Assembly (NCBI GenBank): GCA_963710375.1
Contig: CAVPZX010000007.1
Coordinates: forward strand, 26,986-90,985
Length of the DNA stretch: 64,000 bases
From: Nitrospirota bacterium
GTDB lineage: Bacteria > Nitrospirota > Thermodesulfovibrionia > Thermodesulfovibrionales > Dissulfurispiraceae
Direction of reading: 5' to 3'
A program made the translations under genes and the position numbers. Every line of letters begins with the position of its first letter. Position 1 is the stretch's first letter. The notes beneath the pieces are model-generated. The model did not search any database, was not told where the DNA came from, and saw only the letters and a program-made list of their open reading frames with translations. Positions 9,385-61,900 of this stretch are shown here, in pieces.

Positions 9385-9475
9385 GTGAATAGTGAAAGGT
9401 GAATGGTGAATAGTTAAAAGCTAAAGATTTTTTGTTTTACGTTTTTCCTTGAGCCGTTGACGATTCACTATTCAC
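9385..9475. repeat. Palindromic 7-mer tandem element (GTGAATR family)
   Basis: gtgaata-gtgaaag-gtgaatg-gtgaata ... cgttgac-gattcac-tattcac. Confidence 0.8.
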
Positions 9476-9481
9476 CTCTCT

Positions 9482-11517: not shown

Positions 11518-11565
11518 GTGAATAGTGGATAAAGACAGTGAAAGGTGAATAGTGAATGGTGAAAA
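11518..11565. repeat. Single arm of the GTGAATR 7-mer family
   Basis: gtgaata-gtggata...gtgaaag-gtgaata-gtgaatg-gtgaaaa, the same units as 9385-9412. Confidence 0.75.
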
Positions 11566-12019: not shown

Positions 12020-12099
12020 ACAAAGCTTTTTTTCACACTCCTCAGGAAATTGCACGGCGTAACCTTTTGATTGTTTATATCGACTATATAATTAAAAAA

Positions 12100-12204
12100 T
12101 AAGGCAAAGGTTAAGGTTAAGGTTAAGAATGTAGGCAAGACTTCTTAATATCTTTTTTGCTTTCAGTCCATCTTTCTCAACCTTAACCTTTGCCTCAACC
12201 TGCT
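12100..12204. repeat. Palindromic 6-mer tandem element (GGTTAA family)
   Basis: aaggcaaaggttaaggttaaggttaag ... tctcaaccttaacctttgcctcaacctgct. The right arm is the reverse complement of 28264-28295 with one mismatch. Confidence 0.85.
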
Positions 12205-12220
12205 GTTATAAGGAGAAGTT

Positions 12221-21401: not shown

Positions 21402-21528
21402 ACCACAGAGACACAGAGACACGGAGAAAATAATTTATTATTCAAAAAGAAAAATTAAAAATTAATGAAGACCTCATTTTTTCACTTTATTAACTGTGAT
21501 TTTCTCTGTGTCTCTGTGTCTCTGTGGT
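21402..21528. repeat. Palindromic CACAGAGA 8-mer element
   Basis: 30-bp arms accacagagacacagagacacggagaaaat / attttctctgtgtctctgtgtctctgtggt (one mismatch) around an AT-rich spacer. Confidence 0.9.
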
Positions 21529-28244: not shown

Positions 28245-28263
28245 GCTGCATCCTCCCGTTTAA

Positions 28264-28306
28264 AGCAGGTTAAGGCAAAGGTTAAGGTTGAGAAAAACCC
28301 TTGACC
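28264..28306. repeat. GGTTAA-family element arm
   Basis: agcaggttaaggcaaaggttaaggttgagaaa is 31/32 identical to the reverse complement of 12173-12204. Confidence 0.85.
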
Positions 28307-40344: not shown

Positions 40345-40351
40345 AAAGATC

Positions 40352-40497
40352 GAAGGTGTGAAGATGAGAAGGTGCGAAGTTGAGAAGAGGCAAATCACAA
40401 ACGCGAAGACTTCTGTCGCAACTTCACAACTTCGCACCTTCTCATCTTCATCCTTTGACGTTGGCTCACCTTCACACCTTCACAACTTCGCACCTTC
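40352..40497. repeat. GAAGNTGN 8-mer palindromic element inside a lipoprotein 5' end
   Basis: Four forward units at 40352-40383; inverted blocks of four units at 40418-40449 and 40466-40497. Confidence 0.9.
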
Positions 40498-41245
40498 GTC
40501 CTTTAGGCGCCGCCTGCGGTTAATTGCCTCACTTGGGTTAGTGGTAATCCTTGCAGTACCGGGGTGTAAAGGGAAGGGCGGTCCTCCTGTGCAATCAACT
40601 TCTCCGAATGTTTCTGAACAGGCCACAGGAACATCCGGTGTTGACGCAAAGGGCGAGACCGGAACAATACAAAAAATTATAGTCTCGGGCGCGCCTGCTG
40701 CGAATAACACTGCTCTAATCTCTCACATAGAGATTACCCCGAAAGCCCCCAAGATCGGAGATACGATTACGATAAACCTTATTCCCCAGGCAGGGGTGTT
40801 GCTTTCATCAGTTCCAGTTGCCTTTGAATGGAGGAAAAACGGAGAAGGTCTGTCAGAGACATCAAACTCGCTCGCGGTAGACAGCAGGTTTAAAAGGGGT
40901 GACAAGGTCGAGGCGACCGTAACTGTCGACAGCGGAAAAGGCCCCAAGCAGTCTTGGCTCGCCTCGGTAGTAATAGCCAATTCTCCACCCGTGATTACTC
41001 CGGCAACTGAATTGGTGAAAGTAAACGGCAGCACATTCTCTTTCAAGGTGAATGCCAGTGATGCGGATGGAGACCCGTTAACATATACTCTAAAATCAGG
41101 TCCGCCTGGTACTACTGTTGACCCTGCAACAGGCAAAGTGACTTTTACAGTACCGGCTGACAATAAAACAAGCTCGCAGATAGCGGTGCTGGTTTCGGAT
41201 GGCCATGGCGGTGAGGCTATCTTCAATTTTGAGATGGGGAAATAA
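40358..41245 (+). CDS. Lipoprotein with Ig/cadherin-like domains
   Basis: h-region and lipobox LAVPGC, FEWRKNG, NSPPVI, ASDADGDPLTY and VSDGHGG. The exact start is uncertain (GTG 40358 or ATG 40364, both inside the repeat). Confidence 0.8.
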   Translation: MKMRRCEVEKRQITNAKTSVATSQLRTFSSSSFDVGSPSHLHNFAPSSFRRRLRLIASLGLVVILAVPGCKGKGGPPVQSTSPNVSEQATGTSGVDAKGETGTIQKIIVSGAPAANNTALISHIEITPKAPKIGDTITINLIPQAGVLLSSVPVAFEWRKNGEGLSETSNSLAVDSRFKRGDKVEATVTVDSGKGPKQSWLASVVIANSPPVITPATELVKVNGSTFSFKVNASDADGDPLTYTLKSGPPGTTVDPATGKVTFTVPADNKTSSQIAVLVSDGHGGEAIFNFEMGK

Positions 41246-43851: not shown

Positions 43852-46800
43852 ATGATCGAACGGCTCCTCGATTTTGCTCTCCGAAACAAGATCCTGGTCC
43901 TGAGTATAGGCCTTCTGCTTCTTATCTGGGGCATAATTGCATTCCATCGTTTGCCTATAGAAGCTTACCCGGACGTGGCAGACAAATATGCCCAAGTGAT
44001 CACTCAGTGGCCCGGCCGGGCAGCAGAGGAGGTCGAACAGCAGGTCACGATTCCAATAGAGACACAAATGAACGGAATGGGACATCTCGTACACCTTCGT
44101 TCCCTTTCACTCGCCGGTTTGTCTGTCATAACCGTGATTTTCGATGACGACTCCGACAACCTCCAAAACCGCCAGCAGGTGCTCGAAAAGCTTACACTCG
44201 TAAATCTGCCCGCCGGCCTGAGCCCCCAGATAGGCGCTGATTTCAGCCCTGTAGGACAGGTATACTGGTATACCCTGGAGGGCAGGAATCCACAGTACGA
44301 TATCATGGAGCTGAAGCGGCTGCAAGACTGGACAGTATTCAAATATCTTATGTCGGTCCCGAATATTGCGTCTGTATCCGGCTTCGGCGGCCAGACCCGT
44401 GAATACCAGGTCCAGGTCGATCCCAACAAACTGGTTTCGTATGGATTGTCCATAGCTCAGGTGGAGCAGGCCCTCGCCGCGAACAATATCAATGCCGGCG
44501 GAAGCTTTATCGAAAGGGGTCAACAGGCCTACAACGTCAGGGTCGTTGGTTTGATGCGCGATACTGATGACATCGGCGCTACTATCCTGAAGACGCAGAA
44601 TGGGACGCCGGTCAGGATCAGGGATATAGCAATCGTAAGACAGGGACCCAAGATACGCCTGGGCCGCATAGGCAAGGCGATCCGGCACGAAGACGGACGT
44701 GTTATAGACGATGATGATGTTGTCGAGGGCATTGTCCAGATGCGGAAAGGAGCTGAAACAGAGTCAACAATGGCTGCCTTGCACGCCAAAGTCGCATATC
44801 TGAATAAACATATCCTGCCGCCCGGAGTTAAAATTATTTCCTACCTCGACCGCGACGATCTAGTCCACTATACGACGCATACAGTCCTCCGCAACCTTAC
44901 TGAGGGAATAATTCTGGTCGTAATAGTCCTCTTTATTTTCCTTGGGAATGTACGCTCTGCGATTATCGTGGCTCTCACAATCCCGTTTGCTTTGTTCTTC
45001 GCTTCCATCCTTCTCGACCTTCGTCACATCCCGGCCAATTTATTGTCTCTGGGCGCTCTTGATTTCGGAATGATCGTTGATGGTTCAGTCGTTATGGTGG
45101 AAAATATTTTGCGCAGGCTTGAGGAATCCGAAAAAAAGATGGGGAGCTTCAGCCAGACCATTCATCTGGCGGCACATGAAGTGCAGCGCCCCGTTTTTTT
45201 CTCGCGTGCGATCATCATTACTACCTTCCTGCCGATCTTTACTTTGCAGCGCGTCGAAGGCAGATTGTTTCATCCTATGGCGTGGACCGTGTGTTTCGCC
45301 TTGCTGGGAGCTCTGCTCTTTTCGATCCTGCTCGCTCCGGTGCTCGCGAGCTTCCTTTTCCGCAGGCGGGAGCAGAAATGGAAGAATCCTGTGCTGGTGT
45401 GGCTTCTGGACAATTACCCGAAGGCTCTGGACTGGTCGTTCCGTCACCGCATGCTCGTAATAGGATTAGGCGCAGCCTCACTCTGCCTGACTGTCTACCT
45501 AGCTACCAGCAAAGTGATCGGTTCCGAATTTTTGCCGCACCTCGACGAAGGCGCTATTTGGGCCAGGGGCACGCTCGATTCGAGCGTCGGGCCTTCAGAA
45601 GGCACACGTATCATGAATCAGGCACGGCTTGCATTTGCGGCTTTCCCTGAAGTGACTCAGGTTGTTTGCCAAATAGGCAGAACTGACGACGGTACAGATC
45701 CTACCGGCTTCTTCAACACCGAGTATTTCATCGACCTCAAGCCGCGGGACAAATGGCGAAAACAGTTTCATAAGAAAAAAGACGAGTTGATCGAAGCCCT
45801 GAACAAAGAAGTCGAAAAGATACCGGGCGTTGACTGGGGATTTTCGCAGCCCATCGAAGACAACATGGAGGAGGCCCTGAGTGGGGTAAAAGGCGAGTCT
45901 GCTGCCAAGCTTTTCGGCGGCGATCTGAAGGACCTTGAGCAGAAGGCAGGAGAAATAGCAGATGTTATGCGAACGGTCCCCGGAATCGAAGACCTTGGAG
46001 TTTTCAGAGTGCTTGGGCAGCCTAACCTGAACCTTATTGTCAATCGCGCAAAGGCAGACCGCTTCGGAATTAATGTGGTGGACATCCAGGACGCTATTCA
46101 AACGGCTGTGGGAGGCAATCCTGTGACAGAGGTGTTGAAAGGGGAAGAGCGCTTCGACCTGGTAGTGAGATACCAGGAACATTTCCGCAGGACCATCGAG
46201 GACATAGCGAACATACGGATTCTGGCGCCGTCCGGCGAAAGGGTCTCGCTCGGACAGCTATGTGATATTAAGGTTGAAGATGGAGCTTCGATGATCTACA
46301 GGGAGGCAAACTCGCGGTATATCGCCATAAAATACAGCGTACGCGGCAGGGACCTCGGAAGCACAGTTGAAGAAGCCATGAAGAGGGTCAATGACAAGGT
46401 GAAGCTGCCGCAAGGCTATCATCTTGACTGGGCCGGAGAGTATGAAAGCCAGAAGCGCGCAAATGCGCGACTTTCAATCATTATCCCTGTCGCGCTTCTC
46501 ATGATACTGCTTCTTCTCTACATGATGTTCAAATCGTTCAAGTGGGCCATCCTTGTCCTCGGCAACGTGGCCGCGGCCAGCATAGGAGGCTTTCTGTCTC
46601 TCCTTGCCACCGGGACTAATTTCAGCGTTTCATCTGGCATCGGGTTGCTTGCTCTGACAGGAGTGGCTGTGGAGATCGGCGTTATTATGGTGCAATATAT
46701 AAATCAGCTCCGTTCCAGAGGCTTGCATATCGAAAGTGCGGCAATCGGAGGCGCTACCCGCCGGCTGCGCCCTATCATTATGACGATGCTTGTCGCCACG

Positions 46801-46989
46801 CTGGGCTTATTGCCCGCGGCTTTGTCTCACGATATCGGGTCCGATTCCCAGCGTCCCTTTGCGATCGTAATTGTGGGCGGACTGATCACCAACCTGTTGA
46901 TAAGCGTCTTTCTATTGCCTACACTATACGTATGGATTGCAAGAGAGGACGATATACTTCCGAAGCCGGAGGAGAACAGTGAACAATAA
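43852..46989 (+). CDS. CusA/CzcA family RND transporter
   Basis: LPIEAYPD, ANLLSLGALDFGMIVDGSVVMVEN, RLRPIIMT and QRPFAIVIVGG. Confidence 0.95.
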   Translation: MIERLLDFALRNKILVLSIGLLLLIWGIIAFHRLPIEAYPDVADKYAQVITQWPGRAAEEVEQQVTIPIETQMNGMGHLVHLRSLSLAGLSVITVIFDDDSDNLQNRQQVLEKLTLVNLPAGLSPQIGADFSPVGQVYWYTLEGRNPQYDIMELKRLQDWTVFKYLMSVPNIASVSGFGGQTREYQVQVDPNKLVSYGLSIAQVEQALAANNINAGGSFIERGQQAYNVRVVGLMRDTDDIGATILKTQNGTPVRIRDIAIVRQGPKIRLGRIGKAIRHEDGRVIDDDDVVEGIVQMRKGAETESTMAALHAKVAYLNKHILPPGVKIISYLDRDDLVHYTTHTVLRNLTEGIILVVIVLFIFLGNVRSAIIVALTIPFALFFASILLDLRHIPANLLSLGALDFGMIVDGSVVMVENILRRLEESEKKMGSFSQTIHLAAHEVQRPVFFSRAIIITTFLPIFTLQRVEGRLFHPMAWTVCFALLGALLFSILLAPVLASFLFRRREQKWKNPVLVWLLDNYPKALDWSFRHRMLVIGLGAASLCLTVYLATSKVIGSEFLPHLDEGAIWARGTLDSSVGPSEGTRIMNQARLAFAAFPEVTQVVCQIGRTDDGTDPTGFFNTEYFIDLKPRDKWRKQFHKKKDELIEALNKEVEKIPGVDWGFSQPIEDNMEEALSGVKGESAAKLFGGDLKDLEQKAGEIADVMRTVPGIEDLGVFRVLGQPNLNLIVNRAKADRFGINVVDIQDAIQTAVGGNPVTEVLKGEERFDLVVRYQEHFRRTIEDIANIRILAPSGERVSLGQLCDIKVEDGASMIYREANSRYIAIKYSVRGRDLGSTVEEAMKRVNDKVKLPQGYHLDWAGEYESQKRANARLSIIIPVALLMILLLLYMMFKSFKWAILVLGNVAAASIGGFLSLLATGTNFSVSSGIGLLALTGVAVEIGVIMVQYINQLRSRGLHIESAAIGGATRRLRPIIMTMLVATLGLLPAALSHDIGSDSQRPFAIVIVGGLITNLLISVFLLPTLYVWIAREDDILPKPEENSEQ

Positions 46990-48517
46990 AAACACAGAAG
47001 TTGAGAAGTTGGGAAGTTGGGAAGTTGGGATTTTGGGATTTTGCTCAGCTTCACATCTTCACATCTTCGCAACTTCAATTCTGTCCCTTGTGCTAATGAC
47101 CGGATGCGCGGTTGGGCCAGATTTTCAGCGCCCGTCCGCGCCTGCTGTCTCCGACTACGCACTGCAGCCCCTTCCCGCGCAAACAGCTTCGGTTGATGTG
47201 AAGGGCGGCGAGGCGCAGCGTTTTGTGCGTGACATGGACATACCGGGCCAATGGTGGACACTTTTTCATTCCAAACCGCTCAATGACCTGATTGAACAAT
47301 CGCTCAAGGCCAACCCCGATCTTGAAGCCGCCAAGGCAACGCTCCGCGTCGCAAGAGAAAACGTCTATGCGCAGCAAGGCGCGTTCTTTCCAAGTGTGGA
47401 AGCCAGTTTCATTCCATCGCGACAAAAGTCTGCGGGAGTGTTGGCCCCTCCGTTAGCCAATAACAATGATCTCTACAGCCTTTACACTGCGCAGGTTGCT
47501 GTTGCATATGCTCCTGATGTGTTCGGAGGCAACCGTAGACAGGTGGAATCGCTCAAGGCACAGGCCGAATCGGAGCGCTTCCAGCTCGAAGCTGCTTGCC
47601 TGACACTGACATCGAACGTGGTAGCTGCTGCGGTACAGGAGGCTTCTTTGCGCGGACAAATTGCAGCCACTAAGCGGATTATCGATATCCAGAGTGATAC
47701 TCTCAAACTGCTGAAACGTCAATACGAGCTGGGCCAGGTTGCCGGTTTGGATGTGGCGGCACAGGAAGCAGCGCTCGCACAGGCAGAGGCTGCGCTGCCG
47801 CCGCTCGAAAAGCAGTTGGCGCAACAGCGCGACCTCCTGGCACGGCTTGCAGGTTCCTTCCCGAGCGAGAAACTTGCTCAGGAGTTTGAACTCTCTTCGC
47901 TGCAACTGCCCCAGGAACTTCCTGTGAGCCTTCCATCCAAATTAGTGGAGCAACGGCCTGACGTGAGGTCTGCCGAAGAGCAGCTGCATTCTGCCGGCGC
48001 AGAGATCGGCGTCGCAATAGCCAACCGGCTGCCGAATATTACGCTTAGCGCCAATTTGGGCAGCAGCGCTACTGCGATCAACAATTTGTTCAGCCCGGGA
48101 ACTGGATTTTGGGCACTTGCCGGTAATATCACACAGCCGGTCTTCCAGGGCGGCACATTGCTGCACAGGCAGCGTGCTGCTGAGGCAGCCTATGATCAGG
48201 CTGCTGCACAGTATCGCAGCACAGTGCTGACCGCATTCCAGAATGTGGCCGATAGTCTCCACGCAATACAATCCGATGCCGATGAACTGAAAGCTGCTGC
48301 CGCTGCAGAGCATGCCGCAGCCAAGAGCCTCTCCATTGCACAACATCAACTCGAATTGGGCGACATCAGTTATTTGGGACTTCTCAATGCCGAACAGACT
48401 TATCAGCAGGCGGTGATCAATATGGTGCAGGCCCTTGCAAACCGGTATTCTGATACCGCAGCGCTGTTCCAGGCCCTGGGCGGCGGCTGGTGGAACCGCT
48501 CTGACGTTAAAGAATAA
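46979..48517 (+). CDS. NodT family efflux outer membrane lipoprotein
   Basis: GTG start with GGAGG SD, lipobox LMTGC-AVGPDF, WWTLF, RPDVRSAE and ALGGGW. Confidence 0.93.
   Translation: MNNKNTEVEKLGSWEVGILGFCSASHLHIFATSILSLVLMTGCAVGPDFQRPSAPAVSDYALQPLPAQTASVDVKGGEAQRFVRDMDIPGQWWTLFHSKPLNDLIEQSLKANPDLEAAKATLRVARENVYAQQGAFFPSVEASFIPSRQKSAGVLAPPLANNNDLYSLYTAQVAVAYAPDVFGGNRRQVESLKAQAESERFQLEAACLTLTSNVVAAAVQEASLRGQIAATKRIIDIQSDTLKLLKRQYELGQVAGLDVAAQEAALAQAEAALPPLEKQLAQQRDLLARLAGSFPSEKLAQEFELSSLQLPQELPVSLPSKLVEQRPDVRSAEEQLHSAGAEIGVAIANRLPNITLSANLGSSATAINNLFSPGTGFWALAGNITQPVFQGGTLLHRQRAAEAAYDQAAAQYRSTVLTAFQNVADSLHAIQSDADELKAAAAAEHAAAKSLSIAQHQLELGDISYLGLLNAEQTYQQAVINMVQALANRYSDTAALFQALGGGWWNRSDVKE
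46997..47076. repeat. GAAGNTGN 8-mer palindromic element inside an OMF signal peptide
   Basis: gaagttga-(gaagttgg)x3-gattttgg ... tcagcttc-acatcttc-acatcttc-gcaacttc. Confidence 0.9.
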
Positions 48518-48611
48518 CCATAGCAACCGGTACCGAAAAAGGGACAAGGAAGAAATATATAAGCTCGTTGCACTGAGATTTAAAAAGTTCCCTACGTCTG
48601 AAGGAGATTAC

Positions 48612-49112
48612 ATGAAAAAAACCATAAAGGAAAGCTCAGTAGTGATGGCTCAAGTTATGCTGCCTCAGGATGCAAATCCGGCCGGTAATGTGCATGGTGG
48701 TGTGATAATGAAGCTGATTGATACAGCAGCGGGTGTGGTATCTAGTCGTCATGCTCGATCAAACACGGTCACCGCTTCTATAGATATGATGGCCTTCCAT
48801 AATCCTGTATTCGTCGGTGATCTGCTTTGGCTTAAGGCATGCATTAATATGGTTGGCAAGACCTCGATGGAGATTGGTGTCAGGGTAGAGGCTGAAAACT
48901 CCATTACGGGCGAGATCAGGCATACATCGTCGGCATATCTAACATTTGTTGCTCTTGGTCCTGATGGAAAACCTACGCAAGTGCCCGAGCTGATACTGGA
49001 TACAGATGACGATAGACGGAGGAATCAAGAGGCGATCATGCGGAGGAAGGCAAGGCTTGAGCTTCGGAGGAAAGAAGAACAATGTAAACAGGATGGTATT
49101 TGCCCGATCTAG
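48612..49112 (+). CDS. Acyl-CoA thioesterase (hotdog fold, YciA-like)
   Basis: AAGGAG SD, PQDANPAGNVHGG, VTASID, GKTSMEIGV and YLTFVA. Confidence 0.93.
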   Translation: MKKTIKESSVVMAQVMLPQDANPAGNVHGGVIMKLIDTAAGVVSSRHARSNTVTASIDMMAFHNPVFVGDLLWLKACINMVGKTSMEIGVRVEAENSITGEIRHTSSAYLTFVALGPDGKPTQVPELILDTDDDRRRNQEAIMRRKARLELRRKEEQCKQDGICPI

Positions 49113-49207
49113 GTCTTATAGTGCCTGAAGGACATCCTGGGTTGTTACACATTGGTCTGTTTTGGTGCAATTAATAAGCGTGGTGCGCCATTAAGTAAGG
49201 CAATTTC

Positions 49208-50752
49208 TCATGACTTGTTCCACCAACCCCCGCCTAGCGCCATAAATAATGCCGCGGTGTCGGCAAAGCGGTTGGCCTTTGCCTGCACGAGATTGATCAC
49301 TGCCTGCTGATAAGCCTGTTCGGCGGAGAGCAACGATAAGTAATTAACGTAGCCGAGTTCGAACTGCCGGCGTGCAAGGTCGAGGCTCCGTTTGGAGGCC
49401 TGCTCGAAGGCCGCTGCTGCTTTCAGGGTATCGGCATCGGATTGGAGCGCATGCAGAGTGTCCGCCACATTTTGGAAAGCTGCGATTACCGTGCTGCGAT
49501 ACTGCGCCTCAGCCTGATCAAGGCCAGCTTCAGCAGCGCGTTTCCTGTGCAGTAAAGTGCCCCCCTGGAAAATCGGCTGCGTAAGATCACCGGCCAGGGA
49601 CCAGAAGCCGGTGCCGGGGGTGAATAACTTGCTGATCCCTATAGCAGTGGAGCCCAAATCGGCACTGATTGTAATGTTCGGCAGCAAGGCGGCTACCGCT
49701 ACACCCACCTGGGCGTTGGCAGCATGCAGCTGCTCCTCGGCGGCACGCACGTCCGGGCGCTGCTCTACAAGTTTGGAGGGGAGGCTTACCGGCAGATCCT
49801 GCGGAAGACTGAGCGCCGCAAAATCGAATTTCTCCTCCAGTTCCTCGTTCGGGAAGCGTCCCGCAAGGGCAGTAAGCAGATCGCGAGTTTGTGCCAGCTG
49901 GTTCTGGAGTGGGGGCAAGGTTTGCTGCACCTGGGCAAGGGCCGCTTCCTGTGCCGCTACATCCAGCCCGGCAACATAACCGAGCTCGAACTGTCTGCGC
50001 AGCAGGGCGAGCATCTCGGTCTCGATCTTGACAATGCTGAGTGTTGCGGAAATCTGAGAGCGCAATGAAGCCTCCTGAATGGCTGCGGCCACCACGTTTG
50101 ACGTCAGCGCGAGATAAGTCGCCTCAAGCTGGAAACGTTGAAAATCGGCCTGGGCTGTCAGGGATTCCACCAGTCGCCGGTTGCTGCCGAAAACGTCAGG
50201 CGCATAGCCCACACTTACCTGAGCGGTGTGGAGATTATAGGGTTCTTCCTCGGAACTCAGCACCGGCGAAATGGTGCCTGAGTCCTTTGCGCGGCCGGCT
50301 GAATAACCGGCCTGGACAGTGGGATAGTAATAGCCGGCCTGGGCAGAGACGTTCTCCCGGGCCTGGCGCAAGGCTGCCTTAGCTGCGTCGATAGAGGGGT
50401 TAGTCTTAAGCGATTTTTCGATCAGCGCATTTAGCGTAGGCGACTTGAACAACGTCCACCACTGCTGCGGAATATCCATGCCCATGACAAACCGTTGCTC
50501 CTCGCCGCCTGCCACGTTTGCGGCAGATGATATTGAAGTCAGCGGCTGAACGGTATAGCCGCCATTGGCTGGTGCTGTGGGGCGATGGAAGTCAGGACCC
50601 ACTGTGCAACCGGCCATTAGCACAAGGGCCAGGAGAGAAGTTGCGGAGGTGAGAAGTTGAGAAGTTGGGATTTTGCTCATCTTCACATCTTCACATCTTC
50701 GCAACTTCGGTTTTTTCTCATCTTCCCAACTTCTCAACTTCTCAACTTCCAT
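49208..50752 (-). CDS. NodT family efflux outer membrane lipoprotein (paralogue)
   Basis: ATG 50752 with GAGG SD, lipobox LMAGC-TVGPDF, RPDVRAAE and ALGGGWW. Confidence 0.92.
   Translation of the reverse strand: MEVEKLRSWEDEKKPKLRRCEDVKMSKIPTSQLLTSATSLLALVLMAGCTVGPDFHRPTAPANGGYTVQPLTSISSAANVAGGEEQRFVMGMDIPQQWWTLFKSPTLNALIEKSLKTNPSIDAAKAALRQARENVSAQAGYYYPTVQAGYSAGRAKDSGTISPVLSSEEEPYNLHTAQVSVGYAPDVFGSNRRLVESLTAQADFQRFQLEATYLALTSNVVAAAIQEASLRSQISATLSIVKIETEMLALLRRQFELGYVAGLDVAAQEAALAQVQQTLPPLQNQLAQTRDLLTALAGRFPNEELEEKFDFAALSLPQDLPVSLPSKLVEQRPDVRAAEEQLHAANAQVGVAVAALLPNITISADLGSTAIGISKLFTPGTGFWSLAGDLTQPIFQGGTLLHRKRAAEAGLDQAEAQYRSTVIAAFQNVADTLHALQSDADTLKAAAAFEQASKRSLDLARRQFELGYVNYLSLLSAEQAYQQAVINLVQAKANRFADTAALFMALGGGWWNKS
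50637..50749. repeat. GAAGNTGN 8-mer palindromic element inside an OMF signal peptide
   Basis: Four forward units at 50637-50668; inverted blocks at 50677-50708 and 50718-50749. The core matches 47021-47076. Confidence 0.9.
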
Positions 50753-53700
50753 TGTGTGCCTCACTCTTTTCACTTTTTATCTGTTTTTCACGCAGGAACA
50801 GCATACTGAGCGCCGGCACGACTACAAGCAGCATGAATGGGCCGATGAACATGCCGCCAACGATCACGGTAGCAAGCGGGCGCTGCACCTGGCTTCCGAT
50901 GCCGGTCGAAATCGCTGCAGGGAGAAGACCGATACAGGCGGAGAGACTTGTCATAAGCAATGGACGCATGCGGGTTGATGCGGCGTGGAACATCGCGTCC
51001 ACGGGCGCGCTTCCGCGGAGCCTTGCCTGGTTGTAATAGGTAATCATCAGTATGCCGTTCATGACGGATACGCCAAATAGCGAGACAAAGCCGACAGCGG
51101 CAGAGATGCTGAAATTGAGACCGGAGATATAGAGGGCCAACACGCCGCCGGCAACTGCGAAGGGTATTCCGACAAGCGCCAGCAGGCTGTCACGCAGCGA
51201 ATTGAACGTGGTATAGAGCAGCCCCAGGATAAGCACGAGGCTGATCGGCACTATGATTTCGAGGCGCTTTTTGGCTTTCTGCAGGTCGCCAAATTCGCCG
51301 GCCCAGATGAGCCGGTACCCGGGCGGCAGCTTCACGTTTTTCGCGATCTGATTCTGGGCTTCGGCAACAGTGCCACCGAGGTCGCGTTCGCGCACGCTGA
51401 ACTTGACCGGGATGAAGCGTTGCACACTCTCGTGATAGATCCAGGACGCCCCGGTGTCCAGGGTGATCGTCGCCACTTCGCTCAAGGGGATATAAGCGTT
51501 GGCGCCGCTGCTCGTTTGATAAGCCACCTTGACGTCGCGGATTTTTTCGATGCTGTCGCGGTATTTTGGCGGGAAACGGACAACCAGATCGAACTGGCGA
51601 TCGCCCTCTAAAACAGATGTTGCCGTTGTTCCGCCAAGCGCTGCCTGAATAACAGTGTTGACATCGCCGGTATTGAGACCATACCGCGCGGCATTGGCCC
51701 TATCCACCTTGATATTCAGGTTCGGCTGTCCCAGGACCGGAAAGATTCCGAGGTCGGCGACGCCGCGGACCTTACTCATTTGGTCCCGGATTTGCGTGGC
51801 CAGCTTTGTCAAGGTTTCGAGATTTGGTCCGACGATCTTGACCGAGTTGACGGCTTTGACGCCGGAAATGGCCTCTTCGATGTTGTCCTGGATATATTGA
51901 GAGAAGTTGAAGATGACCCCGGGCAACTCGCGCTCAAGTCCGGCGTTGACCTGCTCGGTCAGTTTCTCCTTGGTCATACCCCTTGGCCATTGGTCGAGAG
52001 GCTTGAGCACAGCGAACAGTTCGACATTCGAAAATGGCGACGCATCGCTGCCGTCATCGGGCCTGCCATGCTGGGAGGTTACGGTAATGACCTCAGGAAA
52101 TTTCAGGAGAATCAGGCGCATCTTTCTCGTAGCCGCCTCACCGTCTTCCAACGAAAGCGTTGTGGGCATGGAAGCGCGGATCCAAAAATTGCCTTCTTCA
52201 AGTTGCGGTAGGAATTCGCTTCCGAGCCACTGGACCAGCAATCCGGCCAAGGCTATAAAAATAATTCCGATAACCACTATGATCCTGCGGCGGTCGAGGG
52301 CGAAACGAAGCACCGGATCGTAAAGGCGGTGCAGTAAGCGGACTACTATTGTCTCGGTTTCCTTCAGATGATCGGGGAGCAGAAAGGACGCAAGCACAGG
52401 GGTGACTGTGAAAGTTGCTATCAAGGCGCCGGCCAGCGCGTAACCGTATGTGCGGGCCATTGGGCCGAATATTGCTCCCTCGACTCCTTGCATTGTGAAG
52501 AGCGGCACGAAAGCGGCCACGGTGATCAAGGCTGAGAAAAAAACTGCCTTGTCCACTTGCAGCGCGCTTATCAGAATCAGCCGCAGTCGGTCCGTCCATT
52601 TGTGGCTTTGGCCCAGTGCAGCATGCGTCGATATTCTCGTCGGATCAGCCCCCCAGTGGCCCTCGGCAAGATTTTGGAACAGACCATGTCTTTCTTCCTG
52701 GCTTCCCTGGAAGTTTCGGAAGATGTTCTCGACAAGGATCACAGCCGAATCCACTATGATGCCGAAATCAACTGCGCCGACCGAGAGCAGGTTCGCGCTT
52801 TCGCCCTGGATCACCAGGAGGATGATCGCGAAGAACAGCGCAAACGGAATATTGAATCCGACGATGATGGCGCTGCGGAGATTACCGAGGAAAATCCATT
52901 GAACCAGGAAGACCAGAAGGCATCCAAAGATCAGGTTGTGCAAAACGGTTTGGGTAGTGACCGAGATCAATGATCCGCGATCATAAAAGGGAACCAGCTT
53001 GACACCTGGCGGCAAGCTCCCATCGTGATTCATCTTCTCAATTTCGGCTTTGACCTTTGGCAGCATGTCGTGAGCATGCTCTGTACGGCTCATCACCACA
53101 ATCGATGCCACGGCGTCGTCCTCCATGTCGTGACCCCAAATCCCTAGTCTTGGCCTATAGCCCACTAAGACCTTCGCAACATCCTTTACCAGAACGGGGA
53201 CGCCGTTTGCTTGGGTGAGGACAACGTTCTCGATGTCATCAACCTTGTAGCCCTGGGTCAAATCATCACTACCGCCATCGTCAATCAGCCCGACTCCGCG
53301 GATGTTGATGGATTGCTGGCCGATGCGGATTTCACGTCCTCCCACGTTGATATTGGCGTTACCCAGAGCTGTCAGGATTTGGGGCACCGTGACATTGTAG
53401 GCTTCCAATTTGTGCGGATCGGCTTCGACCTCGAATTCCTTTGTTGGGCCGCCCCAACTGTTGATGGCAATTATGCCGGGAATGGTCAACAAACGGCGCG
53501 CTACGATCCAATCCTGGACCGTTCTGAGATTGGTTATTCCGAAATGCTTCGGACCGATCACCTGGTAACGGAATATTTCCCCGGTACCGCTGTTTTGTTG
53601 AATCGTGGGCACCAGATTGCCCGGAAGACTGACATTTTGTTGCAATGAGATGGCAGCCTGGCTGTAGGCAAAATGATAGTCCACCCCATACTTGAAAACG

Positions 53701-53984
53701 ACCCGGACGAATGACAGGCCATAAAACGAGGTTGACCGGATGACATCGATGCCTGGAGTTGTGTAGAGCCCGATTTCGATTGGGCGAGTATAGTAACGCT
53801 CCATCTCCTCGGCCGAGAGGCCCGGCGACTGCGCGGTAATCTCAAGGATGACCGGAGCTGGATTTGGATAGGCATCGATGTTGAGCTTTTGAAAAGAGAG
53901 GAACGCGCCACCCGCAAACAGCAGCAACCCTACAACAACAATTGCCCGGTGGGTCAGACAAAATGATATGAGCGACTTGAACAT
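50742..53984 (-). CDS. CusA/CzcA family RND transporter (paralogue)
   Basis: LNIDAYP, ANLLSVGAVDFGIIVDSAVILVEN, RMRPLLMT and QRPLATVIVGG. Confidence 0.95.
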   Translation of the reverse strand: MFKSLISFCLTHRAIVVVGLLLFAGGAFLSFQKLNIDAYPNPAPVILEITAQSPGLSAEEMERYYTRPIEIGLYTTPGIDVIRSTSFYGLSFVRVVFKYGVDYHFAYSQAAISLQQNVSLPGNLVPTIQQNSGTGEIFRYQVIGPKHFGITNLRTVQDWIVARRLLTIPGIIAINSWGGPTKEFEVEADPHKLEAYNVTVPQILTALGNANINVGGREIRIGQQSINIRGVGLIDDGGSDDLTQGYKVDDIENVVLTQANGVPVLVKDVAKVLVGYRPRLGIWGHDMEDDAVASIVVMSRTEHAHDMLPKVKAEIEKMNHDGSLPPGVKLVPFYDRGSLISVTTQTVLHNLIFGCLLVFLVQWIFLGNLRSAIIVGFNIPFALFFAIILLVIQGESANLLSVGAVDFGIIVDSAVILVENIFRNFQGSQEERHGLFQNLAEGHWGADPTRISTHAALGQSHKWTDRLRLILISALQVDKAVFFSALITVAAFVPLFTMQGVEGAIFGPMARTYGYALAGALIATFTVTPVLASFLLPDHLKETETIVVRLLHRLYDPVLRFALDRRRIIVVIGIIFIALAGLLVQWLGSEFLPQLEEGNFWIRASMPTTLSLEDGEAATRKMRLILLKFPEVITVTSQHGRPDDGSDASPFSNVELFAVLKPLDQWPRGMTKEKLTEQVNAGLERELPGVIFNFSQYIQDNIEEAISGVKAVNSVKIVGPNLETLTKLATQIRDQMSKVRGVADLGIFPVLGQPNLNIKVDRANAARYGLNTGDVNTVIQAALGGTTATSVLEGDRQFDLVVRFPPKYRDSIEKIRDVKVAYQTSSGANAYIPLSEVATITLDTGASWIYHESVQRFIPVKFSVRERDLGGTVAEAQNQIAKNVKLPPGYRLIWAGEFGDLQKAKKRLEIIVPISLVLILGLLYTTFNSLRDSLLALVGIPFAVAGGVLALYISGLNFSISAAVGFVSLFGVSVMNGILMITYYNQARLRGSAPVDAMFHAASTRMRPLLMTSLSACIGLLPAAISTGIGSQVQRPLATVIVGGMFIGPFMLLVVVPALSMLFLREKQIKSEKSEAHNGS

Positions 53985-58971: not shown

Positions 58972-61900
58972 ATGATTTCAATCCCATCTTTCCACAATAT
59001 CGAAAATATCTACTCAGGCGCCCATACCTCCATCTACCGCGCGGTGCGTGAAGCGGACAAGCTGCCTGTTATCATCAAGCTTCTGGACAAGGAGCATCCC
59101 ACATCTGAGGAGCGTTCCCGGTTTCGGCGTGAGTATGAGATGACGGTGAAGATGAACGGGGAGGGGGTAATCCAACTTTATGATTTACAAAAATACAAAA
59201 ACAGTCTGCTGATGGTGGAGGAGGACTTTGGCGGCGAATCCCTGGCCAAGTTAGTTCCTGCAGTCACTTCTGATATCTCGGGACGCTTGACCCTGGCCGT
59301 CAAGATCACAGAATGCCTCGGCAGCATACATAAACAGCGTATCATCCACAAGAACCTCAATCCTGCCAATATTATCTGGAACCCTCAGTCCGGCCTGGTG
59401 AAGATCATTGATTTCGGCATCGCCACGGAATTTAGCAGCGTGACTACTGCTGTCCTGAATCCCAGCGCCATGGAGGGGACGTTGGAGTACATCTCTCCTG
59501 AGCAGACAGGGAGGATGAACCGTGACCTGGATTACCGGACGGATATGTATTCCCTAGGTGCGACCCTCTACGAGATCTTCACCGGGGAAGCGCCGTTCAA
59601 AAGCAGGGACCCTCTGGAACTGGTGCACTGTCATATCGCCATGAGTCCCGCCGTACCTCACGAGTTGAACCCGCAGATTCCTCCTTTCCTTTCCGGCATC
59701 ATCATGAAGCTGATGGCGAAAATGGCTGAGGAGCGCTACCAGAGCATATACGGTCTGAGAGCCGATCTTGAAAGATGCTGGGAATACATTAAGGCAGGAG
59801 GAGGAGTTGCAGAGGGATTTCATCTTGGCCGGGAGGATTTTTCCGCGGCATTCCATATACCGCAGAAGTTGTATGGCCGGGATATGGAGGTCGCGGGCTT
59901 GCTTGAGGCCTTTGAGAGGGCATCGTCAGGCAGGGCAGAGTCTCTTGCTGGTGACTGGATACGCGGGAATTGGCAAGACAGCGGTCGTCCATGAAATTCA
60001 GCGGACTATTGTGGAGAAGCAGGGTTATTTTATCGAAGGCAAGTTGGATCAGTTGAACCTCAATATCCCCTATGCCTCCCTGACAGAGGCATTTCGGAAG
60101 CTGATCCATCAGCTTCTGTCAGAGGGGGATGTCTCTTTGGCTCAATGGAAGGAAAATATCCTGATGGCATTAGGGCCGAATGGGAAAGTGGTGACAGATG
60201 TCATCCCCGAGGTGGAACTTATTACCGGCGACCAGGCGGACATTCCTGTCCTCCCCGCGGCAGAGACTCAGAACCGGTTTCGTTTTGTCTTTCAGAATTT
60301 TGTCAGGGCATTTGCAACTCCGTCCCATCCCCTGGTCCTCTTTCTTGATGACCTGCAGTGGGCTGATCAGGCGTCGCTGCAACTGATCGAATTCATCATG
60401 AACGATCCTTCGGCCGGTTTCCTTCTGCTTATCGGCGCCTACCGTGACAACGAGGTGGAAGAGGGGCATCCGCTCATGATTACGCTCGAAAGTATGCGGA
60501 AGACCGGGACCCTGGTTAACAGGATAATTCTGTCTCCTCTTTCCATCAATCAGATGAATCAGCTCATAACCGAGTCGCTGCACTGTACAGATGATGACGC
60601 CATGGAACTGACCGAACTATGTTATCAGAAGACCCGTGGCAACCCGTTCTTCCTGAAACAGTTCTTGCAAACCCTGTATAGAGAGGGCCTGATCGAATTC
60701 GACGTAGAACACAGGCGCTGGAGCTGGGAAATGGGGAAGCTTCGGGAACGGGAGTTAACCGAAAATGTCGTCGAATTCATGGTCGGAAAGATACGGAAGC
60801 TACCTCTTGTAACGCAACATATCATGGAATACGCATCCTGTATCGGCAATCAATTTGATTTGCGCACGTTATCGATTATCTCCGGGGAACCTTATCCGGA
60901 AACAGCTGACAAATTATGGCCCGCCTTTGAAGAGGGACTCGTGGTCCCTGCTGACGAGGCTTACAAACCTATACAGGCCGGAGGACCCGGTAATGGAGCT
61001 GCAGACGTTGAGACCACCGCCCCCGAGTACAGGTTTCTACATGATCGTGTTCAACAGGCAACTTATTCCCTGATCGATGATTCGCGGAAGGAGGTTCTTC
61101 ACCTCAAGGCGGGCAGATCCATGCTGGCCCACACGCCTCAGGAAGCACTTGAAGGTCGTATCTTTGAGATCGTGCATCATTTCAATCTGAGCCGGGGAAT
61201 AATCAAAGATTCTGGAGAACGGCAGCGGATTGCTGAGATGAACCTCATGGCCGGAAGAAAGGCGAAGACTTCCGCGGCATATGAGCCGGCCTATCGTTAT
61301 CTCAGCACAGGGATCTCCTGCCTGGAGAAAGACAGCTGGGAGACCCAGTATTCACTGGCATTGGCGCTTTTTTGCGAGGCTGTCGAGGCGGCATATCTGA
61401 GGACTGATTTTACGGAGATGGAACGTCTGGCAGAGGTCGTTGTTGCACATGCCCGGACAGTTCTCGATAACGTAAGCGTCTACGAATCTCAGATGCGTGC
61501 GGCTATGGCACAGCACCGCCCCCTGCAGGCCATTAAGACCGGCCTGCACATACTTGGCCTCCTGGGAGTTAAATTCCCTGCCAGACCAGGCAAGCTGCAT
61601 ATTGTCCTCGAAATCCTGCATACAAAATATATTCTGGCCGGAAAGAGGATCGAGGACCTTCTAACTCTTCCCGAGATGACAGATCCGAGATGCCTCGCCA
61701 TATCAAGGATAATGACCTTCATGAGGACCAGCGCCTACTGGGCCATGCCCACCCTGACCCCGCTGCTGATACTAAAAAGTCTCCAGTTGTCTGTCCGTCA
61801 CGGCAACACCTCCCTGTCCTCATCTATTTACGCCGGTTACGGGCTCATCCTCTGCGGAGTTACGGATGATATCGAAAACGGCTACCGCTTCGGCCAGCTG

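Follow-up and report, generated by a model that had tools for sequence, protein, structure and literature searches.

Why do two paralogous genes carry the same repeat at the same junction and read it in opposite orientations? The question is posed by a 64,000-nucleotide stretch of DNA from a Nitrospirota bacterium (contig CAVPZX010000007.1, positions 26,986 to 90,985; hereafter the window, whose own numbering is used throughout). In this stretch the predicted signal peptides of two outer membrane factor (OMF) genes, here called A and B, are both mostly encoded by palindromes of 8-nucleotide (nt) units. An initial annotation of the window proposed either independent site-preferring insertions or inversion and remodelling within the palindrome. 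We favor, with a probability of about two in three, a history in which the two signals carry sister copies of the repeat, copied by gene conversion (a step absent from both earlier options), with the core of A later inverted in an event that included an in-frame loss of 33 nt. Known mechanisms suffice to explain the case, and the repeat family on which they act is poorly described.

Repeat-encoded signal peptides in two OMF paralogues

Both genes encode NodT-type OMF lipoproteins (TIGR01845), which are 64% identical and, as the initial annotation stated, lie on opposite strands. The features of the two loci are listed below.

46979..48517, + strand: OMF paralogue A, NodT-type lipoprotein of 512 residues with a GTG start; the lipobox Cys is residue 43 (codon 47105-47107)
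46997..47076, + strand: element A, an 80-nt palindrome of five purine-rich 8-nt units (the fifth loop-like), the loop GATTTTGC and four pyrimidine-rich units
47077..47107, + strand: A signal-peptide tail, comprising the end of the hydrophobic (h-) region and the lipobox; taken as the ancestral A-type tail
50752..49208, − strand: OMF paralogue B, NodT-type protein of 514 residues with an ATG start; the lipobox Cys is residue 49 (codon 50608-50606)
50709..50749, − strand: element B linker (9 nt) and outer arm of four purine-rich units; the stop codon of the upstream permease gene czcA-B (50744-50742) lies within
50637..50708, − strand: element B inner core, 72 nt (four units, loop, four units), antisense relative to A, with a perfect 8-nt terminal inverted repeat
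50606..50636, − strand: B signal-peptide tail, of A-type sequence and likely gained by gene conversion
50759..50778, − strand: heptamer remnant upstream of B, an older AAAAGTG-type heptamer arm; several B orthologues have a signal built from this family

The full extent of element B, from outer arm through linker to core, is 113 nt (50637-50749). On the + strand the two elements have the same loop and share sequence at 47021-47076 and 50661-50708, including a 28-nt exact match, with the core read in sense in A and in antisense in B. One additional loop unit is present in A. Translation reproduces both peptides that had been proposed, one from each strand of the core. Each element finishes with GCAACTTC, exactly 8 nt ahead of a common 14-mer whose only two occurrences in the 3.19-Mb genome are at A and B. 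Folding of both elements as DNA hairpins gave z-scores of −4.6 to −5.5, and a search of positions 46500-51200 against Rfam returned no matches.

Translation of the repeat into both OMF N-termini is probable from frame conservation and start-site context. A GGAGGAG sequence lies 5 nt before the GTG of A, which has no in-frame ATG until 47096. In B, a second possible start within the element (ATG 50680) would give a 25-residue signal. Although lengths have changed by 11 and 8 residues, homologous starts and lipoboxes are still in frame, and cleavage of both proteins at the lipobox is predicted. Units read from the pyrimidine strand have no stop in any frame, and in both proteins hydropathy climbs as the lipobox is approached. 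As the initial annotation noted, neither strand of either element is closed in all frames. An exact flip of either element would meet a stop in the register that is used, such that surviving alleles are likely to be those with frame-keeping indels.

An arrangement of this kind could in principle be an assembly artefact, with the repeat causing the two loci to be merged or wrongly connected. Another copy shares 61 nt with element B at 2 differences, and for this reason unitigs of sequencing runs X1-X4 break within that element; in one X2 contig, the flank of this other copy is joined to the right side of B. In each of the same four runs, however, which come from two studies and may include the source sample (X1), one unitig covers the whole of element A with 0 differences, and an X6 unitig likewise covers 50327-50752 with 0 differences. 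Both genes are intact, and homologous signals exist in a relative (see below). The contigs support both loci, and misassembly is unlikely, to the point that we give it hardly any credence. The distant runs X7, X8 and X11 do not resolve the elements; one joint indicates a relative of B that is 89 nt shorter over this region.

A shared junction most likely due to gene conversion

The most likely reason for the shared junction is descent through gene conversion between A and B. In trees of the mature domains (FastTree, 115 rows; IQ-TREE, 22 chosen rows), A and B fall in separate clades (100/100). The sister of B is P0123 in the FastTree result, and P0233 (94/94) in IQ-TREE once that protein is added. 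The signal regions give a different picture. Among 119 A-type and 58 B-type proteins, of which 112 and 53 have usable tails, the A-type tail motif is found in 21 of 112 A-type homologues and in 0 of 53 B-type homologues, and yet the B gene of this genome has it. The signals of B-type homologues are mostly about 21 residues long, with Ser two positions before the Cys in 40 of 53. Three have a heptamer-derived signal, and the signals of B orthologues are otherwise short. A local tract therefore groups with the other paralogue while the remainder of the gene does not, which is the pattern expected of ectopic gene conversion between paralogues.

The tails themselves are alike at the nucleotide level, with 33 of 39 nt identical over the final 13 codons. 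Synonymous choices agree at 6 of 8 four- or six-fold degenerate codons, whereas the corresponding figure for the mature region is 35% (p=0.026). Both tails use CTA, a codon that accounts for 4% of Leu codons genome-wide and occurs nowhere else in gene A. Moreover, A and B are mutual nearest copies of the core, differing at 1 of 40 nt over the loop and arm, and their units 2 and 4 have states present in only these two of the 19 core copies. The unit GAAGTTGC is outermost in 3 of 47 arms genome-wide, all of them in A or B. We infer gene conversion from this combination of an A-type tail on B, nearest cores, private unit states and a shared terminal unit.

Could two copies instead have arrived independently at a signal-peptide hotspot, each with its orientation left to chance, with their likeness reflecting family consensus and convergence? 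The junction is indeed a hotspot: A orthologues have 6-mer, 7-mer or other 8-mer families there, and B orthologues have a 7-mer family. Signal-like N-termini account for 7 of the 24 octamer loci across the genome, and core orientation is about evenly divided over 19 loci. Different repeat families do occupy this junction in other relatives, but the site-preferring insertions proposed by the initial annotation are not the favored account of the A/B pair. Independent arrivals leave unexplained the A-type tail on B, the two private unit states and the gap-free colinearity over 48 residues between the B signal and the A orthologue P0231 of a close relative. Likewise, no target-site duplication is found beside either copy. 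We regard separate insertion as decidedly improbable.

Some orthologues have a short, repeat-free signal at this junction. These homologues encode different peptides. Neither of the two conditions that the initial annotation named as refuting was observed, since the contigs support both loci and the peptides differ where the repeat is absent. The A-type proteins P0005, P0232, P0044, P0020, P0026 and P0032 have signals that seem to come from at least five repeat families. P0005 combines an A-type mature domain with a heptamer signal typical of B-type proteins, which suggests a swap between paralogues in the reverse direction.

Opposite orientation and a close relative

Orientation is addressed by two proteins, P0231 (A) and P0233 (B), which are members of 90% clusters, presumably derive from one close relative, and are known as proteins alone. 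P0231 is 94.5% identical to A in its mature part and A-like over its full length; it has an A-type start followed by the core as read in B. Without gaps, its signal agrees with that of B from this genome in 35 of 48 positions; P0231 is also 11 residues longer than A from this genome. When element A is translated, antisense frame 1 matches P0231 at 20 of 26 residues, while the best sense frame matches at 11 of 26. P0233, which is 92% identical to B, has an antisense-type core in another frame together with an A-type tail. At the protein level, the orthologous locus therefore exists in both orientations between inverted arms. Core orientation is the same in three of the four alleles, with A of this genome being the exception; it consists of the first outer unit, the reversed core and the tail, and is 33 nt shorter.

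These comparisons indicate that the core of A was likely inverted later, with the in-frame loss of 33 nt, although the polarity of the flip is inferred from the proteins of a single relative. Of the two origins first proposed for the pair, inversion or remodelling within the palindrome gains support from P0231, which reads oppositely at the same site, and independent insertion does not. We had also considered that the inner core of B was the one that flipped. This idea was abandoned because the linker-plus-arm layout of B recurs in four other copies and the proteins of the relative point to A.

The history that we favor would proceed in four steps. A repeat family settles at gene junctions and in signal-peptide regions, where its copies are nested or replaced rapidly between species, as is seen at several orthologous sites (see below). 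In the common ancestor with the close relative, the octamer element of A and the h-region tail would have overwritten the heptamer-type signal of B in the coding orientation. Copying across the inverted arms would then have remade A, with the loss of three outer units and the linker, as suggested by the orthologous protein. The route may have been an in-place template switch by a polymerase or a strand-blind copy from B. The layout of A is expected from a template switch between inverted arms and also from a strand-blind copy, which would give a reversed core because B lies on the opposite strand; the doubled loop and terminal unit of A lean toward B as donor. Finally, alleles would survive only with an open frame, leaving the mature channel untouched.

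The same kind of copying could have had the opposite polarity, whereby A is unchanged, B received a reversed copy once, and A of the relative was then overwritten by the B version. P0231 is indeed nearer to the B signal of this genome (35/48) than to B of its own genome (14/54, right-anchored). The doubled loop of A resembles P0233 (antisense frame 0, 16/26), and the linker of B is the family-typical neighbor of that end of the core. However, three of the four alleles read the core alike, and in P0231 both the start and the Thr preceding the lipobox are still of A type. Moreover, the unit count of A (first outer unit plus reversed core, minus 33 nt) is the one predicted by a single inversion with loss. 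We judge the opposite polarity to be unlikely.

Several observations weigh against the history involving an inversion in A. The relative is represented by two proteins whose presence on one contig is presumed, and a search for it among 68 family genomes gave no match above 82%. Inspection by eye of about 20 orthologous octamer sites in this genome (G000) and three relatives with the family (G001-G003) revealed no clean in-place flip; orientation was conserved at the five where the loop or outer element was recognizably homologous, and about eight differed by nesting. Octamer units are also prone to homoplasy, as illustrated by a 40-nt stretch without differences between two copies that belong to different species and are not orthologous. 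Lastly, 7 of 451 windows of the mature region also score 33 of 39 nt, such that the identity of the tails is by itself modest evidence.

A programmed ON/OFF switch could also yield both orientations if flipping of the core placed a TGA in frame and thereby made each efflux channel phase-varying. The arms are inverted repeats, and an exact flip of element A or of the B inner core would run into a stop in the register used. However, contigs of eight runs, which lose rare variants, contain no opposite-strand joint at either element, and no tyrosine or serine recombinase match was found on the contig or among the window ORFs (open reading frames) scanned. In addition, the arms are degenerate and the family has 24 loci, and the change observed is not a reversible flip because it includes the 33-nt loss. 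An active genetic switch is not evident, and we consider this explanation very improbable.

A family of octamer palindromes

A scan of the genome identified 47 octamer arrays in 24 clusters, compared to 0 in two block-shuffled genomes. The unit consensus is GAAG(T/A/G)TG(A/T/G/C), and most copies have the layout of Geobacter-type paired arrays: about four tandem 7-8-nt units per arm, on opposite strands across a variable spacer, in multiple copies at gene junctions. By eye, most of the 24 loci are of a +4/−4 type at gene junctions, often providing a stop; the seven in signal-like N-termini were counted in the same manner, and four lie in frame within genes. The initial annotation had not recognized the shared core as a family-wide motif. 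This core is present at 19 loci in four genomes, and orthologues and paralogues of one another are included in that number. Relative to host or flanking genes (ORFs judged by eye), 8 are sense, 10 antisense and 1 unclear.

The family is abundant in G001-G003, has a single match in G009, and has 0 matches in G004-G008 and G012. In a sample of 301 genomes of the class, the exact 16-nt core was found in G000, in G001 and, without arms, once in G012. Many further 7-mer and 8-mer families are present in this genome. Orthologous sites are dynamic and include filled versus empty sites, family replacement and new copies nested in an old loop. Repeat families evidently replace one another at fixed sites, because orthologous junctions hold different families. 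Between filled and empty orthologous sites no target-site duplication is evident, where flanks are only about 70-90% identical.

Individual sites illustrate this turnover. At L282, L284, L288, L292, L253 and L313, comparison with G000 reveals an octamer palindrome in one species and a different 6-, 7- or 8-mer palindrome or arm in the other. Octamer arms occur in frame in the middle of long ORFs on contig C5 of G000 (182998, 208589, 208994 and 210276), and G001-G003 have other inserts at the same codons; we take the host genes to be tgt-like and O-antigen sugar-synthesis genes. Within the window, a third octamer element (40346-40505) lies where a lipoprotein-like ORF (40358-41245) is predicted to encode its signal; in the G003 orthologue the loop and its orientation are unchanged and the extra arm is missing. 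Junction palindromes of 7-mer, 6-mer and ACAGAG-type families are located at 9391-9480, 11537-11565, 12092-12215, 21402-21528 and 28253-28295. One copy of the core (C5:328264-328331) has 4 bases more in the assembly than in contigs of runs X3 and X4, reflecting either a strain difference or an assembly error.

Comparison with known systems

The closest architectural match is the class 1 "predicted global regulator binding sites" of Geobacter metallireducens, which are paired tandem octamers proposed as IHF/HU sites (Aklujkar et al. 2009, PMC2700814). As in that genome, four tandem 8-nt units per strand face each other over a variable spacer, with 24 pairs per genome. The class 1 unit GTTGCTYN differs from the one found here, indicating the same architecture in a different family. 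The passages of that account that bear on these sites, its section 14 and supplement S7 mention no signal-peptide translation, paralogue copying or inversion. The convergent GGGAATC heptamer arrays of Xanthomonas (Rehm et al. 2015, PMC4692102) likewise have short tandem units, a preference for four copies, frequent convergent pairing and positions near or over stop codons. However, the Xanthomonas unit is 7 nt long, forms G-quadruplexes and is mostly intergenic, and the text consulted contains neither "signal peptide" nor "four helix".

Inversion of an inverted-repeat spacer with homogenization of its arms has been attributed to template switching (Abraham and Hazkani-Covo 2021, PMC8604942). 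The portions of that study that apply here describe inversion between imperfect inverted arms in coding regions, with several adjacent residues replaced together. Those cases are from yeast and involve up to five residues, whereas A would involve about 25 residues, a 33-nt loss and possibly a second donor locus. Geobacter bemidjiensis has an intragenic in-frame repeat family (PMC2996986) that, from what its description indicates, is similarly a dispersed palindromic repeat translated in frame and tolerated on either strand.

Rickettsia palindromic elements are likewise dispersed repeats translated in frame and tolerated on either strand. They are fixed units of 100-150 nt and are not known to have arms of tandem units, whereas the present elements have arms made of 8-mer arrays, belong to one of several families that succeed each other at a single site, and favor signal peptides. 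Switches of the fimS/hin type have both orientations in one population, conserved recombination sites and a linked invertase. This class was rejected on the lack of inversion joints in contigs of eight runs and of a recombinase match on the contig.

Assignment to REP/BIME elements (repetitive extragenic palindromes and bacterial interspersed mosaic elements) mobilized by a RAYT (REP-associated tyrosine transposase) was also rejected, since no RAYT is flanked by octamer loci. The single Y1 transposase match (C2:220024) adjoins none of the 24 octamer loci, its other repeat neighbors not having been examined. The target-site duplications expected of miniature inverted-repeat transposable elements were found at neither A nor B, and the genome has no match to the GxxExxY nuclease family PF13366. 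Our search of the literature, mostly non-subscription and by titles and abstract openings, returned nothing on such repeats in signal peptides or around four-helix-bundle genes.

Operon setting

The OMF genes belong to two CzcCBA-like resistance-nodulation-division (RND) operons that are convergent in the window, with a thioesterase-like gene between them.

43852..46989, + strand: czcA/cusA-family RND permease A, upstream of OMF A
50742..53984, − strand: czcA/cusA-family RND permease B, with its last codons and stop within the repeats
48615..49112, + strand: hotdog-fold acyl-CoA thioesterase-like gene between the convergent operons (match below curated cut-offs)

The start of OMF A overlaps the end of czcA-A by 11 nt. 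For czcA-B, the TGA stop (50744-50742) lies inside the element and is supplied by it, as the initial annotation had recognized. Among the genomes checked, the convergent arrangement of A, thioesterase-like gene and B was found only in this one; L315 (G007), L316 (G008) and L355 (G003) each have one operon within the 20 kb fetched. Over 48987-49147, in the 3′ part of the thioesterase-like gene, runs X2-X4 have a second contig with 13 differences, which is probably a paralogue or another strain. Elsewhere in the window, a Ser/Thr kinase ORF (58972-59994) ends shortly after its kinase domain with a tail that looks unrelated, and is possibly a frameshifted larger sensor kinase.

Four-helix-bundle genes between repeat arms

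A wider question, beyond the OMF pair, is why genes for four-helix-bundle proteins of PF05635 sit between repeat arms. Six such genes score above the cut-off in this genome. Five of them have a 7-mer or 8-mer array within 250 nt, compared to a background of 9.9%, and inspection by eye showed arms of 6-mer units beside the sixth. In most cases the gene is flanked by a purine arm on one side and a pyrimidine arm on the other, and the repeat family differs from gene to gene.

G000 C8:73142, C5:269654, 373441, 318222, 208065 and 281039; L356-L377: PF05635 genes with tandem-repeat arms (6-, 7- or 8-mer), one of them armed by the octamer family

About 19 of 21 PF05635 genes shown from the genus have arrays (by eye; kin are not independent). 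The octamer-armed gene occurs at the matching site in G000-G003, which are the octamer-rich genomes. This gene is no known transposase, and no search for insertion sequence ends was made. The arrangement supports a possible derivation of the gene-less palindromes from PF05635 cassettes. As a tentative proposal, which we hold to be possible but would not bet on, the 6-, 7- and 8-mer palindromes may be gene-less derivatives of a class of mobile element not yet described, in which the loop of the full form carries a four-helix-bundle gene resembling that of the 23S rRNA intervening sequence protein, acting as orientation-proof signal-peptide cassettes. If this is true, the purine arm would serve as a charged n-region and the pyrimidine arm as a stop-free h-region, and such elements would keep altering, exchanging and inverting the export signals of envelope proteins.

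Implications for envelope proteins

The OMF pair appears to be a rare case in which both strands of one stretch of DNA encode the predicted signal peptide of orthologous proteins. Either orientation would give a passable n-region and h-region, because the purine arm codes for charged residues and the pyrimidine arm for stop-free small or hydrophobic residues. The mature channel would be unaffected, because the signal is predicted to be cleaved. Constraints on signal peptides are loose, and palindromic repeats together with gene conversion can swap about 25 residues in one step. The case also cautions that N-termini of envelope proteins in these bacteria come from repeats and are an unreliable basis for start calls, phylogeny and tests of selection.

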